Program-made: the position numbers and the translations under genes
The notes under the pieces: generated by a model
The model's input: only the letters and a program-made list of their open reading frames with translations
What the model was told of the DNA's origin: nothing
Databases searched by the model: none
Source: a virus
Taxonomy: Duplodnaviria > Heunggongvirae > Uroviricota > Caudoviricetes
Length of the DNA stretch: 39,614 nucleotides
IMG/VR virus record: IMGVR_UViG_2579778871_000008
Strand: one strand, 5' to 3'
Shown: positions 23,900 through 35,155 of the stretch, in pieces
Layout of the letters: each line of letters starts with the position of its first letter
Numbering within the stretch: position 1 is the stretch's first letter

Positions 23900-24259
23900 T
23901 TACCTCCAGATACGTTGCTGGTATGTGCGGGATGGACGCGGTGGACGTTCGGAATAAGGGAGCCTGACAGAGATTATCCAGTGACGATAATCGAGGCTGA
24001 GGGCTTTCTTAACCTCGTATCCGCGCCTGCCGTAACACTGAATCAGCCATTCGGCCTGTTCTTCAGTGCATGGGGGATGCTGGTACCAGTCAGATTTGAA
24101 TACATGAGAACGCCGCCCGTGCCTGCTGGCAGGGGCGGCAGAGTTATCCGAATTGTAAAATCTGGTATCGTGCGCCATCAGTTTTCTCTGCTGACGCAGC
24201 AGGTGCCAGTTGTTCAGGCTGGCATGTGGATTGTAAACCAGAATGCTCAGAAAAAACAA
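23900..24259 (-). CDS. hypothetical protein (nin-region)
   Basis: 119 aa ORF whose stop abuts the DUF968 gene start; true start may be internal (MAHDTRFY...). Confidence 0.4.
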   Translation of the reverse strand: MFFLSILVYNPHASLNNWHLLRQQRKLMAHDTRFYNSDNSAAPASRHGRRSHVFKSDWYQHPPCTEEQAEWLIQCYGRRGYEVKKALSLDYRHWIISVRLPYSERPPRPSRTYQQRIWR

Positions 24260-24276
24260 AACCCGCCGTAGCGGGT
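24250..24276 (-). terminator. intrinsic terminator after the HTH/ImmA gene
   Basis: acccgc-cgta-gcgggt hairpin followed on minus strand by tttgtttttt. Confidence 0.7.
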
Positions 24277-24280
24277 ATGC

Positions 24281-25384
24281 TCAAACAATCTGAAAAATAT
24301 TTCTTGGATTTGTAATAGGTCGATTGATGGAGAACAACTCACGAATTAAATCTTGACTCAAGCCAGTTTTCATCAGAATTCTTAACCAAGTTGCATCATC
24401 CAGCATGTCAATCGCTTCGGACAGCATACTTGGTTCTTCGGGGCGCAAAAGTTCATCACCTGGTTCAACTCTCGTGTACCCTCTAGAATTAAGATGCATA
24501 TAGCCAGTTCTTGCCTGTTCCTGGGTCAATAGTCCTAATGCACTGGCTCGATAAATACACATTTTAAGGCTAATTTTCCATCTAAGCTTAAATTCAACCA
24601 GAGCACTCCAATCGAATTGCTTACCTCGTATTCGTGGAAATTCTTTAATGAAAGATAGCCTAGGAACCAATAAGGCGCTAGAAAAGTGATCAGCTTGTGA
24701 TTCCGTAAGTTTATCACCAGTAGTTATGCCCTCATGCATTACTAAATGCCCTAACTCATGACCTAAATCAGAGCGAAATCTACATATGCTTTTTTTTACA
24801 TTGTTCCTGATAATAACAGGCCTGTTATTGTGAACAGTGAATGCATCAACACGATCATCGACTCCCGTAACATGCGCAACGATTACCCCCAAACTCTCCG
24901 CCAATTTCACCATTGATGATATAGGACCAAGACCTAGATTCCATGCACGGCGACAATCTTCTGCCACTCGCTCAATATCATTCGGGGTCAGTAATTCAGT
25001 TCCTGGGTGCTCTGGTATGTTGACATCAGGGAATTCGATTTCACCTTCAACAGCAGAAATTATAATATTAAGAATCTCAGCCCTGGCCAAGACACTATTA
25101 GTCAGCGTTTGAGTCCTAGACTTCTTACTCCGAAAATGGCAAACATCGCTTTCCAGAGCATATTTTCGCTCAGTAAATAGAAAATCGGACTTAATCATAA
25201 GAGCTGAGGCTATTAACTCCAGGCATTGCTCTGATGGCCTAAATCCCTTCTCCAATTTGCTAACGAATTGCTTTGTTTTGCCAATTTTTTCGGCCAACTC
25301 TTCACATGAAAGCCCAACTGCCATTCTTGCTAGTTTGAGCTTATCGCCTCGATACTCAGTGAAGTTATTCACCTGATGTTCCAT
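24281..25384 (-). CDS. XRE-family HTH fused to ImmA/IrrE-type zinc metallopeptidase (COG2856/M78-like)
   Basis: 367 aa; N-terminal HTH (LARMAVGLSCEELAEKIGKTKQFVSKLEKG) and HEXXH motif HELGHLVMHE in the middle; start overlaps the upstream ORF. Confidence 0.8.
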   Translation of the reverse strand: MEHQVNNFTEYRGDKLKLARMAVGLSCEELAEKIGKTKQFVSKLEKGFRPSEQCLELIASALMIKSDFLFTERKYALESDVCHFRSKKSRTQTLTNSVLARAEILNIIISAVEGEIEFPDVNIPEHPGTELLTPNDIERVAEDCRRAWNLGLGPISSMVKLAESLGVIVAHVTGVDDRVDAFTVHNNRPVIIRNNVKKSICRFRSDLGHELGHLVMHEGITTGDKLTESQADHFSSALLVPRLSFIKEFPRIRGKQFDWSALVEFKLRWKISLKMCIYRASALGLLTQEQARTGYMHLNSRGYTRVEPGDELLRPEEPSMLSEAIDMLDDATWLRILMKTGLSQDLIRELFSINRPITNPRNIFQIV

Positions 25385-26015
25385 TACTGCTCACATCCAA
25401 ATTTTTATCCTTCGTACGCCGACGAAGAGACACCTTATTAATCTCCGCTTCGCCAGGGAGTGTGTTACCGTCAAGGGGCATAAGTGGCATTGATGCTGTA
25501 GATTGATGAGAAACCATACTAATCTGAGCACCATAGGTATTAAACCCAACAAGAGCCACCTCCCAACGAGGCAGTGTGGACTCTAATTCACCATCTCCCT
25601 CTTCGGATAAAAATGGCTCCGCTATGACTCGCCATGTAATGTCTTGCTCAGCCTCAACATCACCAAACAATGAAAGCTGCTCATGCTCTACTTTATTTCG
25701 ACGCAGGCGATGTTTCTTTTTGGGGTTATTAATGCAATCTTTGGTAAATTGTAGCGGAACTTTATTTAAAGCAACTACATAGTCCAACCCCTTGGAAATC
25801 ATCTTAAGACCAGGAATTGCGCCTTCATTTTGAATAAGATGGTTTCTGACCCAATCATAAGCCCTTACACCTTCAGACCAGTTGCTGTCTAATACGTGCT
25901 TATGATAGTACAACTGCTCAAGTACGTTAGCGATCTCCGCCAACAACTGGCGAACATTGCTTTCAGCAAGATAAGGTTGAAATTCCCAACAAGGAGCTAA
26001 CTGATTTTCATTCAT
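25365..26015 (-). CDS. hypothetical protein co-transcribed with the HTH/ImmA gene (candidate effector/toxin partner)
   Basis: 216 aa, no recognisable motifs; its 3' end overlaps the downstream start by 20 nt; putative TTGACA promoter upstream near 26040-26075. Confidence 0.5.
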   Translation of the reverse strand: MNENQLAPCWEFQPYLAESNVRQLLAEIANVLEQLYYHKHVLDSNWSEGVRAYDWVRNHLIQNEGAIPGLKMISKGLDYVVALNKVPLQFTKDCINNPKKKHRLRRNKVEHEQLSLFGDVEAEQDITWRVIAEPFLSEEGDGELESTLPRWEVALVGFNTYGAQISMVSHQSTASMPLMPLDGNTLPGEAEINKVSLRRRTKDKNLDVSSNGTSGE

Positions 26016-26180
26016 TTCAAGTTTCGCTTTTTTTAGAATTCGTAAACCTTATATTTTCGCATTTTCCTGTTTTTGTCAACCAGACTAATGCAAAAACCCT
26101 CCGAAGCGGGTTAAGTGCGGGTGCATTGAGGATGCCTGACTCATCAGAGGTGGCGAGGGATTTCTCCCTCGCCGGGTCTC

Positions 26181-26336
26181 TTACTCCTCAGGTTCGTAAG
26201 CTGTGAAGACAGCGACCTCCGTCTGGCCGGTTCGGATTCGTACCTCGCAGAGGTCTTTCCTCGTTACCAGTGCCGTCACTATGACGGTTAAACAGATGAC
26301 GATCAGGGCGATTAACATCGCCTTATGCTGCTTCAT
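26181..26336 (-). CDS. hok: Hok/Gef-family type I toxin (HokD/RelF-like)
   Basis: 51 aa MKQHKAMLIALIVICLTVIVTALVTRKDLCEVRIRTGQTEVAVFTAYEPEE, a hallmark Hok/Gef sequence; ORF-track entry 26181-26393 is an in-frame upstream extension. Confidence 0.85.
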   Translation of the reverse strand: MKQHKAMLIALIVICLTVIVTALVTRKDLCEVRIRTGQTEVAVFTAYEPEE

Positions 26337-27361
26337 AGCCTGCTTCTCCTTGCCTTTCGGCACGTGAGAGGCTAACCTACGTGTGCAAGTCATAGATATG
26401 GCCTCAGATTAATGTTAGGCGTCTTGCAGGACGCGTAATGTTAACTGGGGCTTTTCTCTATCTGCCGTTGGTATTCATGCCTGAGACAGATAGCCTCAAG
26501 CACCCGCAGCAATCCTACTTAACTCCCGTCACCTCGCCAATATAAAATCAATCAGAAAGGCGATCCATAAGAACAACAGCAAGACAATAAATTGCCATTA
26601 CAGCCGCAATAGCGAGCGCACATTTGAGAACCAGCACGACAACCTCCTGTATTGGACGTACACCAGTCCTGATAAATATGAGGCTGTCTCATCATTGATG
26701 AGATACAACTATTGGGAATAGTTTCTGTGATTTTGTTCTGTAGAAATGGAACACAACAACCAGTCACCACCAGCACTTCTTTAAAAACGCCAAGTCCGAC
26801 GCAAGCTAACCTTCTAGTCCGCTTTGAACGATGAGCGGAAATTGACATATCTGTTAAAGTGAATGGTTCGTTTTGCAGGGATACTTACACTGCCCCCTGT
26901 CAAAATGATATAGCGAAGAATAAGAGTTCTTCTTCAAGAACAACAAAAAGAGATCATTCCAGCATGCTGGAAACGCAGCGTGTAATGATGACGGATAAGA
27001 CTCTGGCGCATTCCATGACAGCGGCAAAGGCCATAGCAGCCAATCAGATAGCTAGAATAGCCGCGAGGAAGGAAAGCCACCAGCAAAATGAAGCCATCGA
27101 GCGCTTGCGCGTAAATACGCGAATCTTAAACGGCGCAGAGATGCAGATTTACCCGCAACTGGCGACTTCAGCAATGAACCGCATACAGACCGAGTAAGTG
27201 ATGCGCTGGATGCCGTATTGAAAAGACAGCCAGAAAAGCGGTATTGGGTTCCAGAGGGTTTTAGAGGTTAAAGCGCTCACAAATCTAGCTAATTTGTAAC
27301 CATCTTTAAACGTTTATGATATTGTTAAATAAAACTAAAACTACCACGGCATGATTTACCG

Positions 27362-28060
27362 ATGAAAAAAGAACTTGAAACCATACTGCCTGAGTTTGGT
27401 GAGGCAATTCGCCCTTACGTTTATAGTTACGTAACAGCAAACAAAAATGCCAATGCCAAGCACGTCCTGTTTATGGCTGGTTCGCCTGCTGCAGGTAAAA
27501 CCGAGCTCTTAAATCGTCTTTTAGAACAACATGGCATCACAAACATTGTTCGAATTGATGCTGATGATTTTCGCTGGTGGTTCCCCTACTACAATGAAGA
27601 GAACTCTGTGGACTATCAGAGACCTGCCTCCAGAATGGTCGATTTTATCTACAAAAAAGCGCTATCTGAAGGCTATCCCATTGTTATGGACTCTACTTTC
27701 TCCAGTATAGGTATTGCGGAGAGAAACTTTGATCTGGCCCTGAAGGCTGGTTATCAGGTAGCACTGAATTACGTCTATTTTGATCCGGCTTACGCGTGGG
27801 TTTTTGCCCAAGCCCGCTCTCGTAAGGTTCCGTTAGAGGTTCTTAAAGCGAACTTTTTCAAGAGCAGAGAGACCATTGAACATATGCTCGCGAAATATGC
27901 AGGCCTATTTACACTCAATGTTTATCATCGACGGGAAGATCCTGAAAATGATGGTCAGTTCGTGGTCGACTATACTCCTAACGTGACCCTTGAAAACTGG
28001 ACTACCTCCCATAGCTGCCCATATTCAGACGTTAGCGATCTAGCGCATTTAGGTGTATAA
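27362..28060 (+). CDS. P-loop kinase, zeta-toxin/AAA_33-like
   Basis: 232 aa; Walker A FMAGSPAAGKTELLNRLL near the N-terminus and Walker B-like hhhhD (PIVMDSTF). Confidence 0.65.
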   Translation: MKKELETILPEFGEAIRPYVYSYVTANKNANAKHVLFMAGSPAAGKTELLNRLLEQHGITNIVRIDADDFRWWFPYYNEENSVDYQRPASRMVDFIYKKALSEGYPIVMDSTFSSIGIAERNFDLALKAGYQVALNYVYFDPAYAWVFAQARSRKVPLEVLKANFFKSRETIEHMLAKYAGLFTLNVYHRREDPENDGQFVVDYTPNVTLENWTTSHSCPYSDVSDLAHLGV

Positions 28061-28079: not shown

Positions 28080-28712
28080 GTGTATATGTCTGTTAAAACT
28101 GAAGCCATTAAACCAGCTGCTGAAATTTCGTTGTTCGATGCATTCGGACCTAACGTGAGCGAGCGGGTACAAGCCATCAACCGGAAGGCCGCTGAGCTTT
28201 CTATGGCTGATATGGCTCAGGTAATGGACGTGACATTATCGTCTAGGAAGAAACTGGAAGTAACTGCTGAGAGCAAATATATTCTCGATTTGCCTCAATG
28301 GCTAGAAGTCAATGCACGGAAATCTGGAGTTTCTTTTGACATGAAAGCATACACTTCTGCTGAAGTTAACAAGATGCATGTTCCTGACTTTCGCCAGTTC
28401 CTTCCTGTAGGTGCAAATATGTTGCATACCTATTCACCAATCGGTAAAACGGGCCTGCAAGGAATTCATGATTATTTAATCGGTGCTGTTTCATCTAAAC
28501 TTCATCACTTGCAAGGTGTCGGAGTTGATGAGGGCACGTTTAAAATACTTATCCGCTATGAAGATGCTAAAACGGGTGCTCCCCGCAATGATATAGTTGA
28601 AGCTGAGTCGACAATTAGCCCAAGTTCTTTCACTAGGCTCAAGCCCCGTGTGAAAAAACTTCGCAGAAAAGGTCATGAAATGGCGATGCATGCACTAATT
28701 GCCAAAAAATAG
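28080..28712 (+). CDS. hypothetical protein co-transcribed with the P-loop kinase
   Basis: 210 aa ORF 20 nt after the kinase; AAGGAG SD before the internal ATG at 28086; followed by a strong terminator. Confidence 0.5.
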   Translation: MYMSVKTEAIKPAAEISLFDAFGPNVSERVQAINRKAAELSMADMAQVMDVTLSSRKKLEVTAESKYILDLPQWLEVNARKSGVSFDMKAYTSAEVNKMHVPDFRQFLPVGANMLHTYSPIGKTGLQGIHDYLIGAVSSKLHHLQGVGVDEGTFKILIRYEDAKTGAPRNDIVEAESTISPSSFTRLKPRVKKLRRKGHEMAMHALIAKK

Positions 28713-29250: not shown

Positions 29251-30117
29251 TTAGATGGCTTTGCTTCGATATTCAATTTCTAAAATCGCCTTTGTCATTG
29301 CCGCAATAGTTATAGCTTCTACCATAGTTAATTCAGGCCTGTTCAAGCTTCCGTGTCCAGCAGTAGGTAGTTTGTTGCGTAAATCATAAATATCTTTAAC
29401 AACATCAATAAGATTCTTAGGTAATTTTGACATTTTTTCGAACTGTTTAAAAAAACCACCCAATGACTCATTTGCCACATTCGGGTTTTGAGTGATTTCC
29501 TTCGCCATAGTTTCTAGAATATTAGAGGCTGCGTGCAGTGCACCCGCCGGGTCATTATTATCCAAGCAATTATTCATTCTATCTATTTGCTGAATGATAT
29601 TTGGATGCAATCTCTTTAAGTAATCACTAGCCAATTCTTCATTGAAGTTTTTGACACTTTCAAAAACATCGCAATCTAAATAAAATTTAGGATTGACTGA
29701 CATCCATGTATATTTCCAATCATTTTCTAAATTATCTTTTTCCGCACTAAGCCTGCCAGTATCCTGATCTATCTAATCAACATATTTACACATATAATCG
29801 GCGTAATAGTGTAAATATCTAAATGATATTTCTGGGCAAAAATTACTAACTGATGCAAGGCCGCCATATTCTTTTGTAGTAACTGTAGGGACTTCTTCAT
29901 CACATAAATATGAGAAACTAGTTCTTTCCCAAAATTCGCCCAACTCTTTTTCTTTCCTAGTTGCCATACCAGCTATCATATTGATGCTTGAGAGCAAAAC
30001 TACACTCTGATAGTACCGAGGACATCTGTATGAACTAGCATATGGGCATTTTGATGATGCTTTACGATTAATACGCTCTTTTTCCCACCAATTTTTATCA
30101 GGAATAATTCTTTGCAT
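29251..30117 (-). pseudogene. AT-rich ORF of about 288 codons interrupted by one in-frame TAG (candidate nonsense-disrupted moron gene)
   Basis: ORFs 29773-30117 and 29251-29703 are in the same frame, separated only by TAG at 29773-29775 and 23 sense codons. Confidence 0.45.
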
Positions 30118-34611: not shown

Positions 34612-35155
34612 ATTAATAACTCTCTACTGTAAGGGTATTAAAATGTTATCACAGACTCTCGCTGTAGGGGTATAGCCGAGACCACCGAGCCTGAAGTGGT
34701 AAAAAGACAGGCACACAACACGAAAGCGCACGGCGAGGCTGTTAGTTCATAAATGGTCTGTCGTTAAATTTACGTCGACCGTGCGCTTCCGGTTGTGGCA
34801 CTCCGCGAAATGGCGCGGCGGTAAGTATGGCGGGGTTATTCCTTCCCCCGTTGAGGACACCGGGTTGTCAGGTTGACCATACGCTTAAGTGACAACCCCG
34901 CTGCAACGCCCTCTGTTATCATTTTTCTGGTGACGTTTGGCGGTATCAGTTTTACTCCGTGACTGCTCTGCCGCCCTTTTTAAAGTGAATTTTGTGATGT
35001 GGTGAATGCGGCTGAGCGCACGCGGAACAGTTAAAACCAAAAACAGTGAAATGGGTGGATTCTCTGTATCCGGCGTTAATTGTTAACTGGTTAACGTCAC
35101 CTGGAGGCACCAGGCACCGCATCAACAAAGTTCATTTGTAAAAATGGAGATAATT

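Follow-up and report, generated by a model that had tools for sequence, protein, structure and literature searches.

The locus described here raises the question of what a pair of AT-rich genes, set among the nin genes of a lambdoid prophage, encodes and how the two products would act together. It lies in a 39,614-nt stretch of viral DNA (IMG/VR record IMGVR_UViG_2579778871_000008), which is referred to as a whole as the window. In an initial annotation made from the sequence alone, the pair was described as a two-gene operon comprising a 216-aa protein and a fusion of an XRE helix-turn-helix (HTH) domain with an ImmA-type metallopeptidase, and it was proposed as a candidate defence or toxin-antitoxin (TA) module. 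We find that the region 24277-26092 is very probably a two-gene TA and anti-phage cassette of the RosmerTA type, which a lambdoid prophage of Escherichia coli (Qin site) carries as exchangeable cargo. RosmerTA was defined by Millman et al. (2022) as a zinc-peptidase antitoxin with a toxin, function unknown (bioRxiv 10.1101/2022.05.11.491447).

Identification of the gene pair

Both open reading frames (ORFs) are on the minus strand. The 216-aa ORF extends over 26015..25365 and the 367-aa ORF over 25384..24281, and the 20-nt overlap that had been noted between them (25365..25384) was confirmed. The homologues from Serratia, Buttiauxella and Enterobacter also overlap by 20 nt. Comparison with the Enterobacter pair gave ratios of nonsynonymous to synonymous substitution (dN/dS) of 0.08 and 0.024, indicating purifying selection on both genes.

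The hidden Markov model search against defence-system models that the initial annotation had recommended gave a definite result. PADLOC assigned the 216-aa protein to RmrT (PDLC03929, E 1.4e-24, residues 7-206) and the 367-aa protein to RmrA (PDLC03943, E 1.5e-105, residues 11-350), the latter matching 13 further RmrA models (14 in total). The genes are therefore named rmrT and rmrA here. The suggested Rosmer-like architecture was thus correct, and the description of the pair as a candidate module has to be replaced, because the system is already catalogued as RosmerTA and is not a new candidate. It is an ordinary instance of a widespread and known kind of system, and defence-finder models already name the pair. 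In RefSeq, rmrA is labelled "helix-turn-helix domain-containing protein" and rmrT "hypothetical protein".

The antitoxin or regulator RmrA has the predicted fusion architecture. Pfam identified an HTH_3 (XRE) domain at residues 16-62 (25199..25339, minus strand; E 2.5e-8) and a Peptidase_M78 (ImmA/IrrE-like) zinc peptidase domain at residues 176-281 (24542..24859, minus strand; E 4.4e-11). By motif reading, the zinc motif is intact, with HELGH at residues 209-213 (24746-24760, minus strand) and E228..ADHFSSALLVP downstream. The combination of HELGH with a downstream E..ADxFSSALLVP signature is kept in every partner RmrA examined. RmrA shares 29% identity over 300 residues with the verified RmrA of the OLC-716 system. 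Sequence matches of its HTH in the PDB include the 434 repressor and SinR, and the protein further matches NCBIfam antitox_spr1629 (E 2.8e-45, under the curated cut-off) and the PADLOC models capP (E 1.9e-14) and capH (E 9.9e-6).

The toxin candidate RmrT

All 55 aligned members of the RmrT family match PDLC03929 (best 3e-72), and RmrT also matches PHROG 5786. Judged from its sequence, RmrT is a member of a small catalogued family that is distinct from each of the three characterised Rosmer toxins. The protein is acidic (isoelectric point 5.45) and soluble, with a grand average of hydropathicity of -0.52 and a disordered C-terminal tail at residues ~172-216. No transmembrane segment was found in RmrT, the maximum of the Kyte-Doolittle profile over a 19-aa window being 0.95. 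When the 55 family members were all compared with Pfam, only scattered single matches at noise level were obtained, and a PDB sequence-profile search with RmrT gave nothing significant. The earlier statement that the partner has no recognisable domain therefore holds for Pfam and NCBIfam but not for PADLOC, where the RmrT model recognises it.

A structure prediction of the 216-aa protein, which had also been recommended, was informative in part. The first AlphaFold2 model relied on 14 close homologues and was poor, with a predicted local distance difference test (pLDDT) score of 62. A second one, based on an alignment of 55 diverse sequences, proved usable (pLDDT 82, predicted template modelling score 0.72) and showed two N-terminal helices, a mixed sheet and the disordered C-terminal tail. 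Foldseek comparison of the model with the PDB and BFVD gave no match at E<=1e-3.

Several assignments of the toxin were considered and rejected. Membership of the OLC-716-type RmrT family (PDLC03935) was dismissed on the grounds of different PADLOC models and absence of detectable homology. A membrane-depolarising mechanism of the Kita phage D5 type was rejected because RmrT is without a transmembrane segment. A confident fold match together with a conserved D...(D/E)xK motif, as required for placement in the PD-(D/E)xK nuclease class, was not found for RmrT.

A putative clamp-binding motif in RmrT

Residues Q113-L-S-L-F117 of RmrT, encoded by 25665..25679 (minus strand), are invariant in the close family and match letter for letter the consensus bacterial beta-clamp-binding pentapeptide QL(S/D)LF, which makes them a putative clamp-binding site. 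This pentapeptide is the clamp-binding consensus, and SocB has been shown to bind the clamp cleft via a clamp-binding motif (PMC9690074). Across the RmrT family, Q113 is conserved in 48/55 members, L116 in 44/55 and E110 in 52/55. The strict motif arises in shuffles of the whole RmrT protein at a frequency of 1.8e-4.

For counts in linker segments, motif patterns were fixed beforehand from published motifs. The pattern Qx[SDE][LM]F was present in 27 of 90 unique linker segments of the RmrT family, as compared with 0.4 expected from shuffles, and its rate in control ORF windows was 0.17%. A motif was found in 47 of the 90 unique segments of this family (4.8 expected). The toxin family of the verified OLC-716 type (loci L097-L177) carries a motif at one aligned position of an otherwise hypervariable linker, in the variants QFDMF, QLDMF, QSSLF, QGELF, NLDLF and similar, and as QLKLDL in enterobacteria; 14 of 66 segments match, 0.2 being expected from shuffles. 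These variants resemble the internal motif QADMF of Pol III alpha and the QLxLxL type of Hda and Pol IV.

The pneumococcal Rosmer toxin RipA binds the hydrophobic pocket of DnaN, as established by two-hybrid assays and by suppressors in the dnaN cleft. Neither the RipA preprint nor the published paper describes a clamp-binding motif. Taken together, QLSLF, the motif of the verified family, the RipA-DnaN interaction and the SocB precedent favour a model in which the toxin plugs the clamp. The DnaN sliding clamp is therefore the mechanism that we prefer for RmrT, although it is put forward tentatively. It is a more speculative step to propose that two unrelated Rosmer toxin families each acquired a clamp motif (QLSLF, QxDMF, QLxLxL), and that Rosmer, in view also of the RipA-DnaN genetics and of its ClpX/ClpP dependence, would be a widespread SocAB-like class of clamp-targeting TA and defence systems that would halt replication by blocking the DnaN cleft. 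Such a unifying clamp mechanism for Rosmer was not found stated in the searchable literature.

Pairing and distribution of rmrT and rmrA

A profile search of 1.84 billion representative proteins revealed only 59 clusters related to RmrT, nearly all of ~200 aa, and a profile search of genome contigs with a narrower RmrT alignment gave two loci only. All five distant RmrT homologues inspected (18-38% identity) are followed on the same strand by a Peptidase_M78 gene of 348-384 aa. These five pairs are carried by a Tn7-like transposon, a Mu-like phage, P22-like phages, in which the repressor gene is adjacent, and two short contigs from metagenomes. Close homologues occupy differing positions in lambdoid prophages of Serratia, Buttiauxella and Enterobacter.

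In IMG/VR, all 79 of 79 loci with relatives of this RmrA (39-100% identity; loci L017-L096) have the toxin family of the window directly upstream, and relatives of the OLC-716 RmrA pair with the other toxin family in 74 of 75 unique partners. Each RmrA clade thus co-evolves with its own toxin. Since ImmA-type antitoxins in general have been reported to swap partners, this strict pairing suggests a specific recognition surface between RmrA and RmrT.

The cassette is present at >=80% coverage in 237 of 5426 complete E. coli genomes (~4%) and on two E. coli plasmids only. Neither the cassette nor the toxin was found in the sequenced phages of INPHARED.

Promoter, leader repeats and terminator

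The TTGACA promoter proposed upstream of the pair was supported in part. The -35 hexamer is present at 26074..26079 (minus strand) and is invariant across five genera, namely in the E. coli, Serratia, Buttiauxella, Enterobacter and Xenorhabdus sequences. Conservation starts at this element, the onset of cross-genus identity with the Serratia, Buttiauxella, Enterobacter and Xenorhabdus homologues being exactly at TGGTTGACA. The 67 nt up to the ATG are 85-91% identical in Serratia, Buttiauxella and Enterobacter, as compared with 19-44% just upstream. In the adjacent coding DNA, synonymous sites are 57-85% different, i.e. saturated, across the same genera.

The probable -10 element is AAATAT at 26051..26056 (minus strand), 17 nt downstream of the -35 hexamer. 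It is a weak match, and the same TTGACA-17 nt-AAATAT layout occurs in the Xenorhabdus homologue. The other options, TGcGAAAAT at 15 nt and TATAAG at 20 nt, are likewise imperfect. Because the leader is conserved across genera, the promoter is considered supported despite the weak -10 element.

The promoter and leader contain two direct repeats of 27 nt each, spaced 33 nt apart. Repeat A (GGTTGACAAAAACAGGAAAATGCGAAA; pattern GGTTGAC-N13-GCGAAA, 26081..26055) covers the -35 hexamer and the spacer, and Repeat B (GGTTTACGAATTCTAAAAAAAGCGAAA; GGTTTAC-N13-GCGAAA, 26048..26022) lies in the leader, both read on the minus strand. Both are retained in Xenorhabdus. They are good candidate operators for the RmrA HTH, and RmrA would bind both over the promoter and leader, leading to autoregulation of the operon.

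The clean intrinsic terminator that had been noted is located 3' of rmrA. It was detected by the terminator scan at 24251..24276 (minus strand; ACCCGCTACGGCGGGT + TTTTGTTTTTT) as a hairpin at 24276..24261 followed by the T-run TTTTGTTTTTT.

The cargo slot in the prophage

The window is a lambdoid prophage of the Qin attachment side (rspB/ynfA) and encodes a CI-like repressor (LexA family) and a Cro of its own. E. coli MS 119-7 has an essentially identical prophage, which differs in two IS3-family insertions (L001, 10307-11637 and 30142-31448) that the window lacks (at ~15841 and ~34340). Thus, the window derives from a closely related lysogen without these insertions.

The RosmerTA cassette, comprising promoter, rmrT, rmrA and terminator, is 1816 bp long (24277..26092, minus strand) and was delimited by composition and by blastn breakpoints against an empty site (L011) and a site occupied by a Doc-family TA (L012). 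Its GC content is 0.414, as compared with 0.527 in the nin genes to the left; the range is ~0.41-0.42 for the region and 0.53-0.56 for the left-side nin genes, in agreement with the AT-richness reported at first. All blastn comparisons break at window positions 24276 and 26092/26093.

The slot lies between the hokD terminator and the nin genes for a 92-aa protein and DUF968. A query with the flanks only showed that this junction is very common and that its content is variable: the slot is empty in many prophages, holds rem in K-12-type Qin and holds a Doc-family type II TA in strain N61. The view of the nin region as a hotspot for cargo was therefore not only upheld but narrowed to a precise slot.

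The cassette ends correspond to two copies of the hairpin AAAACCC(G/T)CCG(A/T)AGCGGGT, of which the empty site has one, the hokD terminator. The upstream boundary copy is the hokD terminator itself (AACCCGCTTCGGAGGGTT + TTTTGC; 26094..26112, minus strand), identified as a terminator-like site and from the copy counts, and the rmrA terminator is the second joint copy. Each occupied site thus has the hairpin of the hokD terminator, AAAACCCGCCGAAGCGGGT, twice, in the window at 24258-24276 and 26094-26112. The joints are identical whatever the slot holds, be it empty or filled with rem, the Doc-family TA or RmrTA. The duplicated terminator hairpin may be a recombination joint. With its own promoter, two genes and a terminator between the breakpoints, the cassette is therefore a self-contained unit in a cassette-exchange slot.

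Proposed mechanism and alternative explanations

At the level of the family, published work assigns the antitoxin role to RmrA, shows that ClpX/ClpP keep the toxin in check and shows that phage infection can be aborted. A delta-rmrA construct could not be transformed or obtained by Millman et al. (bioRxiv 10.1101/2022.05.11.491447). In transposon sequencing of Pectobacteriaceae, rmrA and clpX proved essential in the strains with a Rosmer system and in no others (PMC13566846). In E. coli E101, clpP is essential due to a prophage TA of Rosmer architecture, and in Streptococcus pneumoniae RipB neutralises RipA. Phage defence was shown only for one E. coli Rosmer system (OLC-716) and for one Gordonia phage system (Kita, of narrow spectrum).

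By analogy, RmrA would neutralise RmrT by direct binding, by proteolysis or by hand-over to ClpXP. RmrT, once freed, would insert QLSLF into the hydrophobic cleft of the DnaN beta sliding clamp, and with the clamp so occupied the replication of both host and phage would stall, in the way reported for RipA and SocB. This combined explanation, in which the Rosmer identity is blended with the clamp as target, is considered moderately probable.

A number of observations weigh against it. In a sizeable RmrT branch the motif is reduced to ..VDQLF and lacks the Q of position 1, and in some proteins of the verified-type family no more than the LF dipeptide is left. In the structural model Q113-S115 lie at a helix end and not in a free tail, the block having a pLDDT of 69. 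Common descent underlies the motif counts inside each family, so that the independent observations are only the two families and the RipA genetics. RmrT had no match in the Pfam and NCBIfam scans, including no NCBIfam toxin model, and no homology was detectable between it and the verified RmrT of OLC-716 (BLASTP E 9.4; hhalign probability 0.3%). Toxicity, neutralisation by RmrA and phage protection are, for this toxin subtype, predicted from other Rosmer subtypes. With respect to expression, a generic promoter scan called no promoter at TTGACA 26079..26074, which it missed because the -10 element is imperfect; the weakness of that element and the putative operator role of the repeats, both read from the sequence, belong with these reservations.

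The location of the motif also bears on the choice of target. Since it sits at a helix end in the model, the conservation of QLSLF could be structural, and the pair could then be a Rosmer system whose toxin acts on something other than the clamp, e.g. as a degenerate PD-(D/E)xK-like nuclease. We regard this as unlikely. It is somewhat more doubtful that the pair serves chiefly for addiction or stabilisation, or as a prophage regulator, keeping the prophage or cassette in place or tuning host replication rather than defending against phages. The cassette does adjoin the hokD/sok stability element, its slot elsewhere holds a Doc-family TA, the physiological role of RipAB is in competence induction and not in demonstrated defence, and defence is on record for just the two Rosmer systems named above, the Gordonia one being narrow in spectrum. 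However, catalogues list the family as a defence system, protection against phages is on record for two members whose toxins differ, and self-contained cargo on Tn7-like, Mu-like, P22-like and lambdoid elements is typical of defence cargo; moreover, addiction and defence are not mutually exclusive roles.

A reversal of roles, in which the HTH-peptidase is toxic and the 216-aa protein restrains it, would follow the example of PD-lambda-2, where the Xre-peptidase overexpressed alone is toxic and the upstream HigB-like protein rescues (PMC9519451). Yet delta-rmrA was unobtainable, rmrA is essential in transposon sequencing and RipB neutralises RipA, and both the third gene and the HigB-like partner of PD-lambda-2 are absent here; this arrangement is highly improbable. 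No rival is better supported than the explanation that combines the Rosmer identity with the clamp.

The value of the locus is twofold. It defines an exact exchangeable cargo slot in Qin/lambdoid prophages, with a duplicated terminator hairpin and alternating TA and defence cassettes, and it provides a concrete and cheaply testable clamp hypothesis for the unexplained E. coli Rosmer toxins. If true, the clamp hypothesis would unite Rosmer, RipAB and SocAB mechanistically and account for the essentiality of ClpXP.

Neighbouring genes

A type I hok/sok TA is located directly upstream of the cassette, with the hokD/mokD ORF at 26181-26393 and the sok RNA at 26331-26505 on the minus strand (Rfam sok, 105 bits). 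Beyond it is a divergent group of three plus-strand genes. They comprise a 78-aa ORF at 26964-27197, a P-loop kinase of the zeta-toxin family at 27362-28060 (Pfam Zeta_toxin, E 7e-29) and, at 28080-28712, a protein of 210 aa without a domain match, and the group may be another TA or defence module of the same accessory region. Two small minus-strand genes at 29251-29703 and 29773-30117 have a GC content of 0.33-0.37, and the 150-aa protein of this stretch has a weak Abi_C match (E 1.2e-4, just below the Pfam cut-off). The AT-rich stretch 29251-30117 may be further defence cargo. A PADLOC scan of the neighbours of the cassette, including the three-gene zeta-toxin group, gave no match. The DicF antisense small RNA was located at 34925-34976 on the plus strand (Rfam, 76.7 bits), as expected in a Qin/Rac-type immunity region.

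Comparison with known systems

The OLC-716 RosmerTA system is similar to the window pair in having two co-oriented genes with the toxin first, both matching PADLOC Rosmer models. Its RmrA is likewise a fusion of ~370 aa of an XRE HTH with a zinc peptidase, with the motif HELGH..E..ADxFASA, and both toxins have a clamp-binding-like motif in the linker. The toxins themselves are unrelated in sequence and match different models (PDLC03935 and PDLC03929 for OLC-716 and the window, respectively). A T46S suppressor was described in the E101 prophage toxin that makes clpP essential (Rousset et al.). Residue 46 is T in the OLC-716 RmrT (Millman supplement) and W in the window toxin. On account of this difference, the E101 system is probably of the OLC-716 type and not of the window type.

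PD-lambda-2 (Vassallo et al. 2022) differs from the window pair in having three genes, a HigB-like partner and a toxic Xre-peptidase. ImmR/ImmA of ICEBs1, IrrE/DdrO and CapH/CapP have the same XRE HTH and M78 domains as the window RmrA. In those systems the domains are separate proteins that control induction of an element or operon, whereas the window has them fused in one protein, with a toxin as partner. A cleavage-based switch has been suggested in published work as the logic of Rosmer (PMC10440598). An element-induction switch of the ImmR/ImmA type was rejected for the window pair in view of the fused domains, the LexA-family repressor and Cro of the prophage itself and the occurrence of the pair as cargo among unrelated elements.

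The RmrTA system of the Gordonia phage Kita (Ernits et al. 2023) resembles the window pair in being phage-borne and in having an ImmA-type RmrA, with a toxin otherwise of unknown family (PMC10440598). Through a toxin with a membrane segment at its C-terminus, the Kita system depolarises the membrane (PMC10440598), whereas the window toxin is soluble and acidic.

RipAB of S. pneumoniae (Spr1630/Spr1629) has the same antitoxin architecture as the window pair. The cleft targeted by RipA is the pocket that QLSLF would occupy, and RipA depends on ClpX. RipAB is chromosomal and linked to competence, whereas the window cassette is prophage cargo. The window RmrT has no match among the NCBIfam toxin models.

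The likeness to SocAB, a type VI TA system of Caulobacter crescentus, is in mechanism only. SocB blocks replication via the clamp cleft under the control of ClpXP, and carriage of a Rosmer system likewise renders ClpX/ClpP essential. There is no sequence relationship between SocAB and the window pair, and SocA is a small ClpXP adaptor and not an HTH-metallopeptidase.

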